A DNA stretch of 64,000 bases from Candidatus Enterousia sp. (GTDB taxonomy: Bacteria > Pseudomonadota > Alphaproteobacteria > Rs-D84): contig JAZRGB010000023.1 of assembly GCA_045643965.1 (NCBI GenBank), positions 12,137-76,136 of the forward strand, written 5' to 3'. Positions 1 to 58,164 of the stretch are shown here, in pieces. The notes beneath the pieces were generated by a model that saw nothing but the letters and a program-made list of their open reading frames with translations, was not told the DNA's origin and ran no database searches. The translations under genes and the position numbers were made by a program. The first letter of the stretch is position 1. Every line of letters begins with the position of its first letter.

Positions 1-469
1 TCTGTTGTTGCATTTGTGCCATCTGTTGTGAATTTTGTGCAGCCGCAGCCTGTGCCGCAGCCTGTTGTGCGGCCAATTGCTGTTCTTGCATTTTGGCATT
101 GGCATTTGCAACAATTTGTGCAGCGATTGAATCAATCAAACTGGCACCATGTTTTTTACAATCTTTGTTTGAATTTACACAACCTTCGACAATTGGTCTG
201 GCAATTTCCAGTGTTGTACATGCACTACACTTTGGTTGTGCACAACGTTTTATCATCGCATCACAATTTCCAAAATCAGCCGTTGGTGCACCCGCAGCCC
301 CAGCCAACGTGCGATTATTCATCAATGTATTCCAATTATTGTTATTTGCAGAACCACCATTACCATTCCACGCAGTTAAATTACTGCCCGCAGTGGTTGC
401 AACATTTGCCCCACAAACACATGGGACAAAAAACAAGGTCAGCAATAAAAATCGCTTAAACAACTTCAT
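1..469 (-). CDS. Partial CDS (N-terminal part; gene continues beyond the window start): hypothetical secreted protein with a Gln/Ala-rich low-complexity region
   Basis: Manual reverse-complement translation from ATG at 469-467 gives MKLFKRFLLLTLFFVPCVCGANVATTAGS... (signal-peptide-like), open to the window edge. It is absent from the ORF track because no stop lies inside the window. Plus-strand ORFs 16..459 and 93..485 (PQPVPQPV) are antisense artefacts of this gene. Confidence 0.4.
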   Translation of the reverse strand, partial: MKLFKRFLLLTLFFVPCVCGANVATTAGSNLTAWNGNGGSANNNNWNTLMNNRTLAGAAGAPTADFGNCDAMIKRCAQPKCSACTTLEIARPIVEGCVNSNKDCKKHGASLIDSIAAQIVANANAKMQEQQLAAQQAAAQAAAAQNSQQMAQMQQQ

Positions 470-530
470 ATTCTCTCTTAGGTAAAATTTTACCATATTT
501 TAAATCTATATAAAAGCGAAAAATGATAGA

Positions 531-605
531 AATTTAGAATGATTTAGATAAAAGCAAATCGAGAATCGTTGTCATGAATTGCTGACACAGCCCGTGTTTA
601 GCGAA
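531..605. repeat. Degenerate/partial copy of the palindromic hairpin element family (E1a)
   Basis: Type-I left terminal repeat aatttagaatgatttagataaaa, then the arm caaatcgagaatc shared with copies at 33.8 kb and 52.0 kb. The loop is truncated (gttgtcatgaattg) and the right arm is not complementary. Confidence 0.5.
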
Positions 606-712
606 GAAATTAAAGATAATGGTATAGATAAACGGGTTGGAAATGGCGTAGTGTACAAAAGTTACATGAGCCATCGCCAACCCGCTTTAGATATACCATT
701 AGATTTAATTTA
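606..712. repeat. Palindromic hairpin element, type-II termini (E1b)
   Basis: Left terminus gaaattaaagataatggtatagata, stem cgggttggaaatggc / gccatcgccaacccg, core GTAGTGTACAAAAGTTACATGA at 648-669, right terminus tatataccattagatttaattt. The right end overlaps the ftsK stop codon (tta at 710-712). Confidence 0.7.
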
Positions 713-52213: not shown

Positions 52214-52489
52214 TTATTTGATTGGCGGGAAACAATCACCCCCACTCTCTGGACAACAGTTATATCCTAAATCACCCATGTTGGTATAAACTTCACCAAC
52301 ACAACAACCATTTTTATCTGGTGTTGTGCCATCAAGACATTTCAACGATGGACCAAATGAAAACATATCAATATTTGCATATACTAAAATACCAAACATT
52401 GCACCCAACACAAAAGAAACAACCAAGGAAACCCATGATGTTGTTTTACTTGTTTTTTTCATTGTTGATTTTTTTGTAACTTTTTTCAT
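52214..52489 (-). CDS. Small membrane-anchored protein with a C-terminal 7-Cys module (paralog of 52503..53060)
   Basis: A basic N-terminus plus TM helix (WVSLVVSFVLGAMFGILVYA), then CLDGTTPDKNGCCVGEVYTNMGDLGYNCCPESGGDCFPPIK. The motif is shared with the neighbouring gene. Confidence 0.6.
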   Translation of the reverse strand: MKKVTKKSTMKKTSKTTSWVSLVVSFVLGAMFGILVYANIDMFSFGPSLKCLDGTTPDKNGCCVGEVYTNMGDLGYNCCPESGGDCFPPIK

Positions 52490-52502
52490 ATTTTCTATCC
52501 TC

Positions 52503-53060
52503 TTATTCTATTGGCGGAAAACATTCACCATCCCCAGACTTTGGACAACATGCAAAAACAGAATTACCAAGGTCTTTAAAGACTTCACCTGTGCAACAAC
52601 CAAACTTGTTTGGTTTTGTTCCATCAACACACAAACCCGCATCCAAATTTGCCAATTCTTGTTCCAACAATGCTTCTTCATCGATTTCTTCTGTTTCTTC
52701 TGCGACAAATTCTTCGTCTTCGACGGCTACTTCTGCCGCTGTTGTTACGACATCAGATTTTGTTTCTGTAACTGTTTCTTCTGCAACCTCTTCTGGGGTT
52801 GTAACAGTTGCAGCAACAACAGTATTTTTCACCGCAGACGACTTACGTTTTGCTGCACTGCGTGAACACTTGCTGCGATAATCTGTCTTTAATTTATCCA
52901 ATTCTGCGATTTCGTCTTCTGTTGGTTCTTCGACAGCAGACAATTCTGTAATTTTCGCCTGAATATCTGCACAAGACACACGTTCTGCAACATTTGGTGT
53001 ATCTTCTGCAAATGCACCTGTCGCAGTAATTAATCCAATTAACGCAATCAATATTTTCAT
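52503..53060 (-). CDS. Secreted acidic protein with a C-terminal 7-Cys module (paralog of 52214..52489)
   Basis: Signal peptide MKILIALIGLITATGAFA, a Glu/Thr/Val-rich acidic linker, then CVDGTKPNKFGCCTGEVFKDLGNSVFACCPKSGDGECFPPIE. Confidence 0.6.
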   Translation of the reverse strand: MKILIALIGLITATGAFAEDTPNVAERVSCADIQAKITELSAVEEPTEDEIAELDKLKTDYRSKCSRSAAKRKSSAVKNTVVAATVTTPEEVAEETVTETKSDVVTTAAEVAVEDEEFVAEETEEIDEEALLEQELANLDAGLCVDGTKPNKFGCCTGEVFKDLGNSVFACCPKSGDGECFPPIE

Positions 53061-53073
53061 ATGATGTACCTTT

Positions 53074-53820
53074 TTAGTGTTCGTTTATGATTTTTTCGAC
53101 TTCCAGAATAAAATCTATCGCAGGATTTGTTAATTTTTTTGCAGTTTCAAAAATTTCTTCTGCGGCAGCTTGCATATTTAAACGTTTATACGTTTCAACA
53201 ACTTCGATTGTTTCTTCATTGTTAAATTCATCGTCTTGCAATGCACGTGCAATTTCCAATTCTTGCTTTGCCAGTTCAACATATTTTGCTTTGTTTTCAT
53301 CACAGCCACGTTCTGACAAGTTTGCATAAATTTTTGCACGTGTAATACGTTGATATGGTGGCATAGAAGTATATTCTTCTGGTAATTTGTCTAATAATGA
53401 TGCTTCTATTTTTTGACATGTTGTTTGTGCATCATTCTGTCCACCCAACGCAGCAACTATTTCCATTTCACGTGATATTGCAGCACGATACACACCTTTA
53501 TTCTGTGGACAACCATGCTGGAACAATGTTTCATAAATTCGAATATTGTCTTTATGATATTCTATATTACTTGAATTTTCATCATTCAAATACCCCAACT
53601 GAATTTCTTCGATAATGGCACAAGTTTCTTTTTGCTGATTCTGTTGTAATTCTGTTGCGTCCTGAACCAATGCTTGTTTTGGTTTTTCAGTGTTATATCC
53701 AATTCCCATACCAACCATAACACCACACACAAACAGCATTATCAGTGCCAACCAACCCTTGATTTTCTGTGAACGTGTATAAACAACTTTATAAACTTTC
53801 TTAGATTGTTTTTTTGCCAT
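53074..53820 (-). CDS. Hypothetical membrane-anchored protein with two ~60-aa internal repeats
   Basis: ORF 53074..53868. Start chosen at MAKKQSKK, with SD ggagagg upstream. The TM helix is WLALIMLFVCGVMVGMGIGY. Repeats are (…IYETLFQHGCPQNKGVYRAAISREMEIVAAL…) and (…IYANLSERGCDENKAKYVELAKQELEIARAL…). Confidence 0.55.
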   Translation of the reverse strand: MAKKQSKKVYKVVYTRSQKIKGWLALIMLFVCGVMVGMGIGYNTEKPKQALVQDATELQQNQQKETCAIIEEIQLGYLNDENSSNIEYHKDNIRIYETLFQHGCPQNKGVYRAAISREMEIVAALGGQNDAQTTCQKIEASLLDKLPEEYTSMPPYQRITRAKIYANLSERGCDENKAKYVELAKQELEIARALQDDEFNNEETIEVVETYKRLNMQAAAEEIFETAKKLTNPAIDFILEVEKIINEH

Positions 53821-53851
53821 AATTTCCCCTCTCCTATTTTCTGCTATTATA

Positions 53852-54562
53852 CTATTGAACAACGCCATTGTGAATAGTTATTTTTCTATCTGCTCTGTCT
53901 GCCAATGACATATCATGTGTAACAAACAGCATTGCCATTTTATTTTTACGCACAATATCCAACAACAAATCAAACACGGCACCTGCATGTTGCGGATCCA
54001 AATTACCTGTTGGTTCATCAGCCAATAATATATCAGGATTATTTGCCAACGCACGTGCCAACGCAGTTCGCTGTTGTTCACCGCCACTCATTTCCCCTGG
54101 ATGATGCGATGCACGATGTGCAACATTTGTTGCCTTTAATAATTTTATTGCACGTGTATTTGCAGTATCTTCGTCCATACCATTTGCCAACATTGGCAAG
54201 ACAACATTTTCCAGTGCTGTAAAATCAGATAACAAATTATGTTTTTGATATACAAAACCAATTTTATTTCTGCGTATTTTTGTACGCATATCTTCGTCCA
54301 TTTTATGTACAGGTGCCCCAGAAATAACAATACTGCCACCACTTGGCTTATCCAGCAACCCAACACACTGTAACAACGTAGATTTACCACATCCAGACTG
54401 TCCAACCAAGGCAATTATTTCCCCACGATGCAAATCAAAACCACCACCACGTAAAATATGCAATGGTTGACCGCCTTCGATAAAGGTCTTTTTAATATCA
54501 CGCACCGACAGAACGACATCACCCTGCTTTACCCGTGACAAAGAATTTAAAATATTCGCCAT
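53852..54562 (-). CDS. lolD: Lipoprotein-releasing system ATP-binding protein LolD
   Basis: GEIIALVGQSGCGKSTLL Walker A, LSGGEQQRTALARAL signature, and the LolD-specific region. 236 aa. Confidence 0.85.
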   Translation of the reverse strand: MANILNSLSRVKQGDVVLSVRDIKKTFIEGGQPLHILRGGGFDLHRGEIIALVGQSGCGKSTLLQCVGLLDKPSGGSIVISGAPVHKMDEDMRTKIRRNKIGFVYQKHNLLSDFTALENVVLPMLANGMDEDTANTRAIKLLKATNVAHRASHHPGEMSGGEQQRTALARALANNPDILLADEPTGNLDPQHAGAVFDLLLDIVRKNKMAMLFVTHDMSLADRADRKITIHNGVVQ

Positions 54563-55219
54563 TTATTCTTTTTCCTTACCTTGATTTTTCTTCATTAAAT
54601 ACTCGTTCACTTGTTTTTGCAATAACGCCCTATTATCTGGACATAATATATACTCTAAACGTACGCCTATCTTGTCTAAAACAATTCTTAATTGTTTCTG
54701 TTCATTATGATCAGACTCTGCTTGTTCATAACTTCTATTTATAAAATAAGATATTTCTTCTGGTCCAAAACCATACAGGGCCCCTCTTAAAAAATTGCTT
54801 TTAGCAATCTCATCATCCGGAACATTTACAATTGATAGTTCTGGATTATTTTCTTGTACCCATTTAAAATGTTTATCAAGAAACTCTAAATATTTTGTTC
54901 TTTGACTTGCCCGATATTTTTCCACAACATCCAGTTCTTCATCAGACAAGTCCCCCCTATCCACACAGCCAATTTGAATCAAGTCTTTAATAGTGGGATA
55001 CTTAAAGACAAAAAAATCAATCTTTCCTGATTCTATTTCAAATTTTTCAGGAGGCATTCCACCTGGCAACTTATATTGAAACCATAACCTTTTTGGAAAT
55101 TTAATTCCCAGCCTTGCCAAATCCGTTTCTAATATTTGTGCAGAAGAATTATACCCACCACCAACATTTGCAAACTGCAACATACAAGCATTCAAAAAAA
55201 GCATTAATTTTTTATTCAT
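54563..55219 (-). CDS. Hypothetical periplasmic protein/lipoprotein encoded between lolC and lolD
   Basis: 218 aa with signal peptide MNKKLMLFLNACMLQFA (possible lipobox LNAC). It abuts the lolD start with a 0-nt gap and overlaps the lolC stop by 8 nt. No similarity to LolA or LolB is recognisable by eye. Confidence 0.55.
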   Translation of the reverse strand: MNKKLMLFLNACMLQFANVGGGYNSSAQILETDLARLGIKFPKRLWFQYKLPGGMPPEKFEIESGKIDFFVFKYPTIKDLIQIGCVDRGDLSDEELDVVEKYRASQRTKYLEFLDKHFKWVQENNPELSIVNVPDDEIAKSNFLRGALYGFGPEEISYFINRSYEQAESDHNEQKQLRIVLDKIGVRLEYILCPDNRALLQKQVNEYLMKKNQGKEKE

Positions 55220-56465
55220 TACGTAATACCTCTACCGGGTCTGTATTTGCGGCCTTCCATGCAGGATACAATGTTGCCAAGAATGCCAACGCAACTGCAA
55301 TTAATGCAATTCCCAATACATCTGTCCATACCAGTTTAGATGGTAACTCAGACAAATAATACAATTCCGCAGGAAACAAATCACGCCCTGTTAACCATTG
55401 GAAAAACTGTCTGATTGGTTCGATATAAATCGCAATCACAACCCCCAGAATTGTTCCAAAAAACGCACCAATAACACCGATTGATGTACCCGACAAAACA
55501 AATATCTTCATCATCGATTTACGCGACACGCCAAACGTACGCAGCACTGCGATATCTTTGTTTTTATCTTTAACCAACATAACCAATGACGACACAATAT
55601 TAAACGCAGCCACAATTACAATCAGCAACAAGATTAAAAACATAACATTTGATTCAACCTGTAACGCACCAACAAAACCACGATTTAAATCACGCCAATC
55701 ACGAACAACGAAACCGTCCGGCAACAAACGTCCAAGTGCAGATGCAACATCTGTTGTGTCTTCTGGGTTTTTCAAGAACAAATCAATATGCGTAACAGAA
55801 TTTGGAATATTCAAATATTTTTGTGCTGTTTCCAACGGCATAAATATATACCCAGAATCATATTCATACATACCCATAAAGAACGAACTTTTTACTGGAT
55901 ACGACATAATCCGTGGCATTGATCCAAATGGGGTTGGTGTTGCACCATTTGCAGACACTAATGAAATATTATCCCCCATACCAACACGCAACGCACGTGT
56001 CAGCGATGCCCCCGCAACCAATTCGCCATCTGTGATTGCAGATAAATCTTTACCATAAATACGTGTTCCTGTTTTTGTTTTGGCTGCTAAATCAGACATA
56101 CGAATACCACGAACCATTGCACCTGTATTATTACCATTTGCAGTTGCCATAACCTGACCTTCAGCAATTGGAACAATACCTGTTATATTTTCTGCAACAA
56201 TCTTGTTTTGTTTCATCTTGTCAATCAAGAAATCAAAGTCTGATATCGCACCATCTTGATGATAAACAACAACATGCCCGTTCATACCAACAATACGTCC
56301 CAACAACGTATCATGAAAACCACCCATAACAGACATTACAACAATCAACGTTGCAACACCCAGCATAATACCAATCAAAGACACCCACGAAATAACAGAA
56401 CCAAAACCACGTTTTTTGGCACCCAAATATCTAAAAGCTATTTTTCTTTCCAGTTTTGAAAACAT
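55212..56465 (-). CDS. lolC: Lipoprotein-releasing system transmembrane protein LolC/LolE
   Basis: FtsX-like permease with a MacB-like periplasmic domain. N-terminus MFSKLERKIAFRYLGAKKRGFGSVISWVSLIGIMLGVATL is typical of LolC/E. Confidence 0.85.
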   Translation of the reverse strand: MFSKLERKIAFRYLGAKKRGFGSVISWVSLIGIMLGVATLIVVMSVMGGFHDTLLGRIVGMNGHVVVYHQDGAISDFDFLIDKMKQNKIVAENITGIVPIAEGQVMATANGNNTGAMVRGIRMSDLAAKTKTGTRIYGKDLSAITDGELVAGASLTRALRVGMGDNISLVSANGATPTPFGSMPRIMSYPVKSSFFMGMYEYDSGYIFMPLETAQKYLNIPNSVTHIDLFLKNPEDTTDVASALGRLLPDGFVVRDWRDLNRGFVGALQVESNVMFLILLLIVIVAAFNIVSSLVMLVKDKNKDIAVLRTFGVSRKSMMKIFVLSGTSIGVIGAFFGTILGVVIAIYIEPIRQFFQWLTGRDLFPAELYYLSELPSKLVWTDVLGIALIAVALAFLATLYPAWKAANTDPVEVLRNE

Positions 56466-56475
56466 TAAAATTTCC

Positions 56476-57804
56476 TTATTCGTTCAAGAAATCACGCAAT
56501 GCGTCACCGATTAATTCTTCGGTATTATCATCATGCCCTGTTGCACCATCCATTATTGAAATAATACGTGGCGACATAAACACAACCAGTTCCGCAAATG
56601 GCGACACCAATGTTTCTGGGGTTGTAACAAAAGAATGTGTTGGAATACCAACAATTACATAATTATCACCAACAGTCGTTGGGATATTAAACGAAGACAA
56701 TTCTCCATTTGATGTTCGCAGAACAATTTTTGCATCAATTTTATCACGACCACCAAAGTCCCCATACGTACCTGTTGCACCAATAATCAAATCTGTTTCC
56801 AGTCTTTCTTCCTTGCCACATTGACCAATATCAAAACGTGACTGCCAACCATTTGGAATCGCAAAGGTTCCTTGGGAAATCAGAACAACATTTGCTTGCT
56901 GACCTAAAAATTCTTGTAATGTTTTTGTATTAATTTCTGGTCCAACAACCAATGCACGACCAACAACCCCAGGGATAGACATTTTCACATTTTTATCCCC
57001 AAACGCAGGCAACAAATTCATCCAAACTATTGGATTATCTGTACGTGGATACACACGATAAACATCAATATCCCATGCAATCATGTATTTTTTTCCTGCA
57101 ATATCTGCAATTATCTTTGCGACTTCACGTTCTGTCTGATAATTACCTTCGAACACGACTGTTTTATCGTTCCAATCAACCAGCAGATTTCGCATATCAG
57201 CACCATGCATCGCATCCAACAACGCCATAATAATAGTTTCATTATGTGGCATTTTTATCAGCCACTTTGCACGATGTGTTAAATGTAATTCACCATTATG
57301 TTCATCATAAGAATAATAAACACGTCCCATTTTTGTCATCAGTTCAACAGCATCTGCCAATGTTCCAGACGAAATAGAACCAGATATTTTTTCATATAAT
57401 GGTTCGTCTTCAATAACTGCAATATCTGTACCCAACAACAACTTATCTAACGCTTGTTTAACCGTCAAATCTTTGAATTCATAGTCATCGACTTTCAGTT
57501 CTGGCAATTCATCACCTGTTGCCAAACGAATAATTTCGACTTTTTCTTCTGGAACAACAGACACAACCTTTTGATTATTCCAATCAACTTCACATCTTTT
57601 TGGCAACTCTATTGAAAACCTGCGTGCAGTATCAGTTGTTAATGCGGCTTTTTTCGGGAAAATTGGCACAGAATTTTCATCAATAACCAGATTATCAACA
57701 ACTGTTATTGTATCGTACAAAGGCACATTCTGTTGTTTCTGTGTACATCCCAGCATCACAAAAACCGACAACAAGCCAATCAAACTTTTTTTCAAAAAGA
57801 TCAT
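56476..57804 (-). CDS. Secretin-family outer-membrane lipoprotein (GspD/PilQ/BfpB-like; tentative)
   Basis: Lipoprotein signal (LSVFVMLGC). C-terminal secretin-like motifs …VIVGIPT… and LVVFMSPRII (compare LVIFLTPxII in secretins). There are no other secretion or pilus genes in the window. Confidence 0.4.
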   Translation of the reverse strand: MIFLKKSLIGLLSVFVMLGCTQKQQNVPLYDTITVVDNLVIDENSVPIFPKKAALTTDTARRFSIELPKRCEVDWNNQKVVSVVPEEKVEIIRLATGDELPELKVDDYEFKDLTVKQALDKLLLGTDIAVIEDEPLYEKISGSISSGTLADAVELMTKMGRVYYSYDEHNGELHLTHRAKWLIKMPHNETIIMALLDAMHGADMRNLLVDWNDKTVVFEGNYQTEREVAKIIADIAGKKYMIAWDIDVYRVYPRTDNPIVWMNLLPAFGDKNVKMSIPGVVGRALVVGPEINTKTLQEFLGQQANVVLISQGTFAIPNGWQSRFDIGQCGKEERLETDLIIGATGTYGDFGGRDKIDAKIVLRTSNGELSSFNIPTTVGDNYVIVGIPTHSFVTTPETLVSPFAELVVFMSPRIISIMDGATGHDDNTEELIGDALRDFLNE

Positions 57805-57840: not shown

Positions 57841-58164
57841 TCAAATATTCATAACTTTTTCAAATTCTGCCAACGTCATTTCATGTATTGGTTTTTGCGT
57901 TGGTGTTGTTAAATCTTTGACCTTGTCAAACTGAACAGCAAACCGATTTATCAAATTTATGATATCAGGCGACAAACTTTTATCCACATCGATTAAACGT
58001 CTGCCATATTCTACAACATATTCCAACAAGTCTGCAGCATAAAAACGTCCATTATAATTTTCCATTGCAATTCCGCCCTTTTGGACACATATTGCAGACA
58101 TAAGCATTGCCGTCTGATTATACAAATTTGCCAGTTTTATAAACTGTTGTACAGATATTGCCAT
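57841..58164 (-). CDS. Hypothetical protein
   Basis: 107-aa ORF with coding-like composition and no recognisable motif. Confidence 0.4.
   Translation of the reverse strand: MAISVQQFIKLANLYNQTAMLMSAICVQKGGIAMENYNGRFYAADLLEYVVEYGRRLIDVDKSLSPDIINLINRFAVQFDKVKDLTTPTQKPIHEMTLAEFEKVMNI

Follow-up and report, generated by a model that had tools for sequence, protein, structure and literature searches.

LolA, LolB and LppX are beta-rich half-barrels, and the transporters LolCDE and LolDF are current antibiotic targets. We know of no cytoplasmic accessory protein for LolCDE/LolDF or for MacB-type transporters. Free-standing homing endonuclease genes, such as the T4 mob and seg genes, are found between conserved genes. 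A cytoplasmic accessory subunit has been described for MlaFEDB: this is MlaB, a STAS-domain protein that acts on the MlaF ATPase (PMC7367683). Here we describe a gene, referred to as X, that lies between the permease and ATPase genes of a Lol transporter in Candidatus Enterousia (order Rs-D84), a group with reduced genomes, mostly <1 Mb (PMC12306168).

Within the window, by which we mean the whole stretch of 64,000 nucleotides that was analysed, X is an open reading frame of 218 codons with an ATG start, located on the reverse strand at 54563-55219. Its product has 218 aa, a mass of 25.4 kDa and a pI of 5.9. The first-pass annotation had described a 218-aa ORF overlapping lolC by 8 nt, with a stop codon abutting the lolD start, and this geometry was confirmed on the sequence. 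The ATG of X (55219-55217) lies in the end of the permease gene lolCE, whose last codons and TAA are overlapped by 8 nt (AATGAATAA, 55212-55219, reverse strand), while the TAA of X (54565-54563) is directly followed by the ATG of lolD at 54562. The lolCE end reads CGT AAT GAA TAA (R-N-E-stop) and, shifted by one base, becomes the ATG AAT AA. of X. This placement of the start codon within the last LolCE codons forces an MNK or MSK N-terminus on nearly all lol-linked X proteins. Of 16 loci with X that were examined, 15 have this 8-nt overlap; at locus L074 the start taken by the script was an upstream TTG, later trimmed to the same MNKK start. The LolCE Asn codon involved is AAT at every X-bearing locus, and among X-less relatives it is AAT in 41/66 and AAC in 21/66.

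Signals for translation are also found within the neighbouring coding sequences. A GAGGT Shine-Dalgarno-like motif (55228-55232, reverse strand) precedes the X ATG by 8 nt and falls in the V-E-V codons of the conserved lolCE 3' end, which encodes the conserved C-terminus PVEVLRNE. For lolD, an AAGGA Shine-Dalgarno motif (54573-54577, reverse strand) is contained in the final X codons (..G-K-E-K-E-stop), and an AAGGA-type ribosome-binding motif is usual in the short lolCE-lolD spacer of X-less relatives. No terminator-like sites were found inside X or at the lolCE/X and X/lolD junctions. Co-transcription and translational coupling of X with lolCE and lolD, as first proposed, can be predicted from these features and are supported by the retention of overlap and abutment in X-bearing loci, the placement of the Shine-Dalgarno motifs and the lack of terminators.

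The genes on either side can be assigned with the help of family models. The lolCE gene (55212-56465, reverse strand, 417 aa) is a single Lol permease gene that matches TIGR02212 at 420.3 bits, over the cutoff of 362.45, and carries PF12704 (MacB_PCD) and PF02687 (FtsX); the arrangement is of the LolDF type. The product of lolD (53852-54562, reverse strand, 236 aa) has TIGR02211 as its best NCBIfam model, at 248.6 bits and under the cutoff of 307.75, and its assignment as the Lol transporter ABC ATPase is based on this best match together with conserved synteny, with lolD-lolCE kept in more than 90 loci. Situated 10 nt upstream of lolCE is p442 (56476-57804, reverse strand), which encodes a 442-aa lipoprotein with an LGC lipobox and belongs to the same tightly packed gene string. 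This protein is 70-92% identical across loci, is present in every Enterousia locus and has no family match in Pfam or NCBIfam; it could work with the Lol system as a partner particular to this lineage. The conserved string begins with p107 (57841-58164, reverse strand), by which a promoter-like site is found at 58221-58192.

Downstream of lolD are three lineage-specific, envelope-type genes, p264, p185 and p91 (52214-53868, reverse strand), which are fast-evolving (29-78% identity), and the first of which overlaps the lolD end by 17 nt. A strong sigma-70-like site at the lolD/p264 junction (53846-53874, reverse strand; TTCACA, 17-nt spacer, TATAAT, 11/12 matches) suggests that p264 may begin at a later ATG with its own promoter. 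Variation is also found between lolD and p264, a second slot that in some Enterousia genomes holds inserts of 0.5-1.4 kb (L042:8570-9930, and about 0.5 kb in L020, L024, L025 and L034), and an HMM excluded membership of these inserts in the X family. The products of p185, which has a signal peptide, and p91, which has a membrane anchor (52214-53060, reverse strand), share a Cys-rich C-terminal motif, C.DGT.P.K.GCC.GE....G.....CCP.SG...CFPPI, for which no family match was found. Both genes are part of a conserved string of genes downstream of lolD. Elsewhere, the window carries a match to the alphaproteobacteria-specific AddB model. In related contigs, FtsA and ribulose-phosphate 3-epimerase Pfam domains occur in one 595-596-aa gene adjoining ftsQ (L001:2062-3849, L003:213-2000 and L092:82-1872), an unusual fusion if real.

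X is a real gene, as can be concluded from its full-length homologues in the same slot, the size of its family, its pattern of substitution and a confident structural model. Fifteen close homologues have 53-95% identity, 13 of them full-length (217-218 aa) and 2 fragments, and those whose context was read have the same slot and the same overlap. When 1.84 billion cluster representatives were searched with a profile, 134 clusters (at 50% identity) had E <= 1e-3, 68 of them E <= 1e-10, and members were mostly 200-250 aa long. Pairwise dN/dS is 0.08-0.37 for X, compared with 0.02-0.11 for lolCE and lolD, which places X under purifying selection that is more relaxed than that on its neighbours. 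AlphaFold2, given a 14-sequence alignment, returned a model with a pLDDT of 89, a pTM of 0.84, 11 helices and zero strands. X is predicted to be a soluble, all-helical, cytoplasmic protein of about 25 kDa.

Conservation within the family is concentrated at a few positions (S25/S26-A, Y49-K-L-P52, N125-P-E-L, G146..Y-G-F-x-P153-E-E-I and P194), of which only Y49, N125 and G146 are invariant. Most of these are helix N-caps (H26-36, H126-130, H153-161 and H194-216), and the surfaces are variable. This location at helix N-termini gives the conserved positions a structural rather than catalytic look, and no catalytic signature is visible in the family alignment. The idea that X could be a DNA mimic was rejected given a family pI that spreads from 5 to 9. 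Searches of X against Pfam, NCBIfam (E <= 0.1), PHROGs and PADLOC gave no match, and nothing consistent came from Pfam on long family members or from Pfam and PHROGs on 65 members (E <= 1). The family profile found no PDB sequence under E = 0.4; Foldseek found no match for the model in the PDB (best E = 0.73, TM < 0.25) or in BFVD. Likewise, tblastn against phage and plasmid collections gave no match, and viral contigs scanned with the family motif contained no relative. Family members are labelled 'hypothetical protein' in NCBI records. As far as the databases searched and our knowledge extend, the family and its pattern of placement are undescribed, and as far as sampled its range is uncultured gut Alphaproteobacteria (Candidatus Enterousia, and MAGs titled Alphaproteobacteria or Rickettsiales).

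The first-pass annotation had read a signal peptide and a possible lipobox (FLNAC) at the N terminus, and had proposed a periplasmic or lipoprotein partner of the transporter that could substitute for a carrier or acceptor. The N-terminus of X, MNKKLMLFLNACMLQFANVGGG, does have a superficial likeness to a weak signal peptide, and the operon position is suggestive of a secreted or lipid-anchored Lol partner similar to LolA or LolB. However, L-N-A-C is off the canonical [LVI][ASTVI][GAS]C, and neither Cys12 nor the hydrophobic stretch is conserved even in orthologues. Homologues at 65-83% identity have MNTC in place of LNAC; at 53-62% identity, Tyr replaces Cys12, and Lys, Arg, Glu or Asp appears in the supposed hydrophobic core. 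In a 65-sequence alignment and the listed proteins of the family, the N-termini range from hydrophilic to amphipathic, and a strongly hydrophobic segment of 19 residues is found in almost none of them; in X, residues 3-17 are modelled with confidence as a helix by AlphaFold2. A comparison of folds with LolA, LolB and LppX-like carriers had also been suggested: the model has no beta strand, as opposed to the beta-rich half-barrels of the carriers, and the empty Foldseek search of the PDB leaves X with no LolA/LolB/LppX-like fold. The remark that X is unlike LolA and LolB was borne out, as no LolA or LolB model matched and no described family fits. Finally, X is dispensable and absent in most relatives. 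The periplasmic-partner reading is contradicted, and we assign it almost no probability. With respect to lolA itself, none is visible downstream of ftsK, where about 700 bp (window 1-709) hold no long ORF on the ftsK strand; in E. coli the gene after ftsK is lolA.

The distribution of X was determined from loci retrieved with LolCE from GTDB species representatives, using the best 80 of 236 tblastn relatives (LolCE 87-97% identical). These 80 belong to MAGs of animal and human guts that have the titles Candidatus Enterousia, Alphaproteobacteria bacterium or Rickettsiales bacterium. In agreement with the expectation that lolC and lolD are normally adjacent, the lolCE-lolD spacer is 0-40 bp in 66 of these best 80. 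Another 13 carry an insert of 600-750 bp, and all 13 inserts belong to the X family by HMM. Conservation of the lolC-X-lolD arrangement, which had been put forward as a check, therefore holds in part: homologues use the same slot, but its occupancy is optional (13 of the best 80 of 236). The remaining locus (L030:2875-3085) has a 211-bp spacer that is an in-frame, internally deleted X stub. The first ~30 and last ~42 X codons are left, both the lolCE and lolD junctions are preserved, and the 3' part has 88% nucleotide identity to the corresponding end of X in L014. Motifs of type A, the allele type of the window, were scanned for in the GTDB species representatives and were not found, and mini-ORF remnants in X-less spacers were not consistent across loci. 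Presence of X is scattered over the LolCE+LolD tree. For instance, the closest relatives of the window (L005, L006 and L008; LolCE 96-97% identical) are without X, and even sister genomes whose LolCE+LolD are 95-98% identical can be with or without it. X is dispensable and is not needed for basic Lol function.

Looking beyond this slot, the genomic context was read for the 12 family clusters that could be looked up. Five of them have lolCE-X-lolD (P0012, P0013, P0017, P0028 and P0030). Four others (P0077, P0031, P0046 and P0079) have X in a MacAB-TolC-like operon with the order OEP-MFP-ATPase-X-MacB-type permease, although in P0079 the C-terminus of the upstream ATPase is the only neighbour visible. 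In this MacB slot, 1-4 nt are shared between the start of X and the stop of the ATPase gene. The last three clusters lie elsewhere: P0071, P0025, which is a tandem double X, and P0035, which adjoins Zn_ribbon_2 and Mtd_N genes. A further 18 loci came from a scan of metagenomes; 15 of them have lolCE-X-lolD, 2 lie downstream of a pyruvate:ferredoxin oxidoreductase (PFOR) gene and 1 stands alone. Besides the three clusters, members outside ABC operons are found in L096, L097 and L105 and as a second copy in L092 (L092:12084-12674, reverse strand), 5.4 kb from the lolCE-X-lolD of the same contig. A tandem double X of 409 aa is found at L095:6001-7230, and a member beside Zn_ribbon_2 and Mtd_N, the phage tropism determinant N-terminal domain, at L117:1786-2550.

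X is thus found at the ATPase/permease junction of two type VII ABC operons whose gene orders are opposite, and it is strongly biased to such junctions. Approximately 7 distinct genomic slots of X can be counted, 2 of which are type VII ATPase/permease junctions; a rough estimate, assuming ~3 such junctions among ~800 per genome <1 Mb, gives a chance probability for this two-junction placement of ~3e-4. That the same family occupies a second, MacB-type ATPase/permease junction argues that the transporter link is not accidental. On a rough NJ tree the MacB-linked and lol-linked X proteins form separate clades, which suggests that X has long been resident in each slot and has not moved about at random.

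At least five types of X allele can be recognized, and they are at odds with the host tree. For example, L076 and L080 have LolCE+LolD that are 98% identical but X proteins that are 33% identical, and the corresponding values for L014 and L033 are 93% and 30%; in general, X can be 25-33% identical where LolCE+LolD are 84-98% identical. The MacB slot follows the same pattern, with flanks 87-95% and X 26-41% identical. The reverse is also found. Between L062 and L080 the dS of X is 0.03, against 1.0 for lolCE and 1.07 for lolD, and between L051 and L059 it is 0.14, against 1.0 and 0.9. In one pair the near-identical tract continues 100-150 bp into lolCE; in L051/L059 it begins inside X and extends ~100 bp into lolD. 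High-identity tracts that spill into the flanks in this way are the footprint of homologous recombination via conserved flanks. X has been shown to be hypervariable, recently exchanged by recombination and lost by internal deletion.

A pattern of this kind raises the question of a selfish origin, in which X would be a homing-type gene, similar to a free-standing endonuclease gene, that invades X-less lolCE/lolD junctions and co-converts their flanks. The insertion between conserved essential genes and the patchy distribution favour this reading, and the near-identical X amid diverged flanks, with tracts reaching 100-150 bp into them, resembles co-conversion. Both the patchiness and the co-converted flanks are what homing would produce, but ordinary homologous recombination predicts the same pattern, and the L051/L059 tract starts inside X, as ordinary recombination gives. 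Moreover, the 65 members contain no GIY-YIG, HNH, LAGLIDADG or PD-(D/E)xK motif or Pfam match, the fold is all-helical with three invariant residues, no transposon-like terminal repeats flank X, and the second slot, formed by an ATPase 3' end and a permease 5' end, is non-homologous to the first. We consider homing very unlikely.

The main rival to a role in transport is that X is an accessory 'cargo' cassette unrelated to lipoprotein movement, with a function in immunity, defence, anti-defence or interaction with a partner. Here the constitutively expressed, conserved neighbours would provide expression, and the flanks would serve as homology arms for exchange between lineages. Much of the comparative evidence can be read in this manner: the patchy presence on the LolCE+LolD tree, the allele types that run against host phylogeny, the dS of X far under that of its flanks, conversion tracts with variable ends inside lolCE, lolD or X, and the loss through internal deletion in L030. 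Family members outside ABC operons, one of them beside an Mtd_N gene, also fit, as does the lack of detectable co-adaptation of LolCE or LolD; no residue of either significantly tracks X presence (best p = 0.0036, 645 tests). The first-pass annotation had offered an inserted cargo gene as its fallback, and this is closer to the comparative data than its carrier proposal, but the second, MacB-type slot argues for a non-accidental transporter link. A safe harbour chosen without regard to function would be unlikely to recur between the ATPase and permease genes of a second transporter that is paralogous to the first and has its genes in the opposite order. In addition, no match was found in PADLOC, PHROGs, phage genomes, plasmids or viral contigs, and no toxin or nuclease partner gene is adjacent. 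We regard the cassette explanation as unlikely on balance, though one to be taken seriously.

Our best explanation, which we hold tentatively and at slightly less than an even chance, is that X modulates type VII (MacB/Lol-type) ABC transporters from the cytoplasm and can be dispensed with. X would be synthesised in step with the transporter subunits and would act at the cytoplasmic face of the transporter. Most plausibly it would dock on the nucleotide-binding subunit, which is LolD here and a MacB-like ATPase elsewhere, and, following the logic of MlaB in MlaFE, could modulate the ATPase activity or couple it to a cytoplasmic signal. Physical binding and a regulatory effect are inferred. This reading draws on the recurrence of X at the ATPase/permease junction (5/12 and 4/12 clusters, 13 GTDB loci and 15/18 metagenome loci), on start/stop coupling in both the lol and MacB slots, on the appearance of X as a binding scaffold rather than an enzyme, on slot occupancy that is stable, with separate clades, and on functional constraint, with a dN/dS of 0.08-0.37. 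As would be expected of an accessory subunit, X is predicted to be cytoplasmic and is encoded within the transporter operon.

Several observations weigh against the modulator. X is dispensable in sister genomes and L030 keeps a stub only, no LolCE or LolD residue co-varies with it, and members outside ABC operons are found in 3 of the 12 clusters, at L096, L097 and L105, and as the second L092 copy. Hypervariability and recent lateral transfer are also commoner in conflict genes than in transporter subunits. A concatenated X+LolD AlphaFold2 run gave a pTM of 0.46, but with the first ~65 LolD residues misaligned onto X by MAFFT it is uninformative and speaks neither for nor against binding. A related but rather improbable proposal would accommodate the variability: X may belong to a new class of cytoplasmic protein that evolves fast, docks on ATPases of the LolD/MacB type and forms a conflict interface at envelope machines. 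Such a protein could be a switch that shuts down lipoprotein export or efflux, or a shield that protects it, against phage or competitor factors. If true, this would account for the retention, exchange and diversification of X in a genome <1 Mb. Taking the evidence together, the first-pass annotation was right about the geometry and about an undescribed coupled component, and wrong about the signal peptide, the compartment and the role.

Regardless of what X does, the locus is one in which an extremely reduced genome maintains a hypervariable, laterally exchanged gene in an essential operon. A family repeatedly placed and coupled at the ATPase/permease junction is a direct lead to what may be a natural regulator or inhibitor of such transporters. 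If X has no part in transport, its ~134 clusters still make up a new family, all-helical and without a Foldseek neighbour in the PDB.

Comparison with known systems can help to place X. LolA, LolB and LppX are exported or lipidated and form an unclosed beta-barrel with a hydrophobic cavity, whereas X has no conserved export signal, lipobox, beta strands, or sequence or Foldseek similarity to them; the only feature in common is the genomic association with a Lol transporter. Homing genes such as T4 mob and seg are, like X, optional between essential genes, with a host-incongruent phylogeny and tracts into the flanks. X differs from them in being all-helical, in having no nuclease or DNA-binding motif and in recurring at a non-homologous transporter junction. 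Variable immunity and defence genes share more with the population pattern of X, namely presence/absence polymorphism, several deeply divergent alleles that share a fixed slot, a recent history of lateral spread and a non-enzymatic look. In contrast to these, X belongs to no catalogued defence or phage family, has no partner gene, and sits start/stop coupled in a slot within an essential operon, with a context biased to type VII ABC transporters. MlaB is a conserved, stable subunit of another ABC transporter type and has an alpha/beta STAS fold, whereas X is all-helical, optional and without a STAS Pfam match, and so is not a member of that family. What MlaB and X have in common is a small soluble protein, cytoplasmic in MlaB and predicted to be so in X, whose gene lies inside an envelope-lipid ABC transporter operon; MlaB acts on the ATPase subunit and not on the substrate, and the same role is proposed for X.
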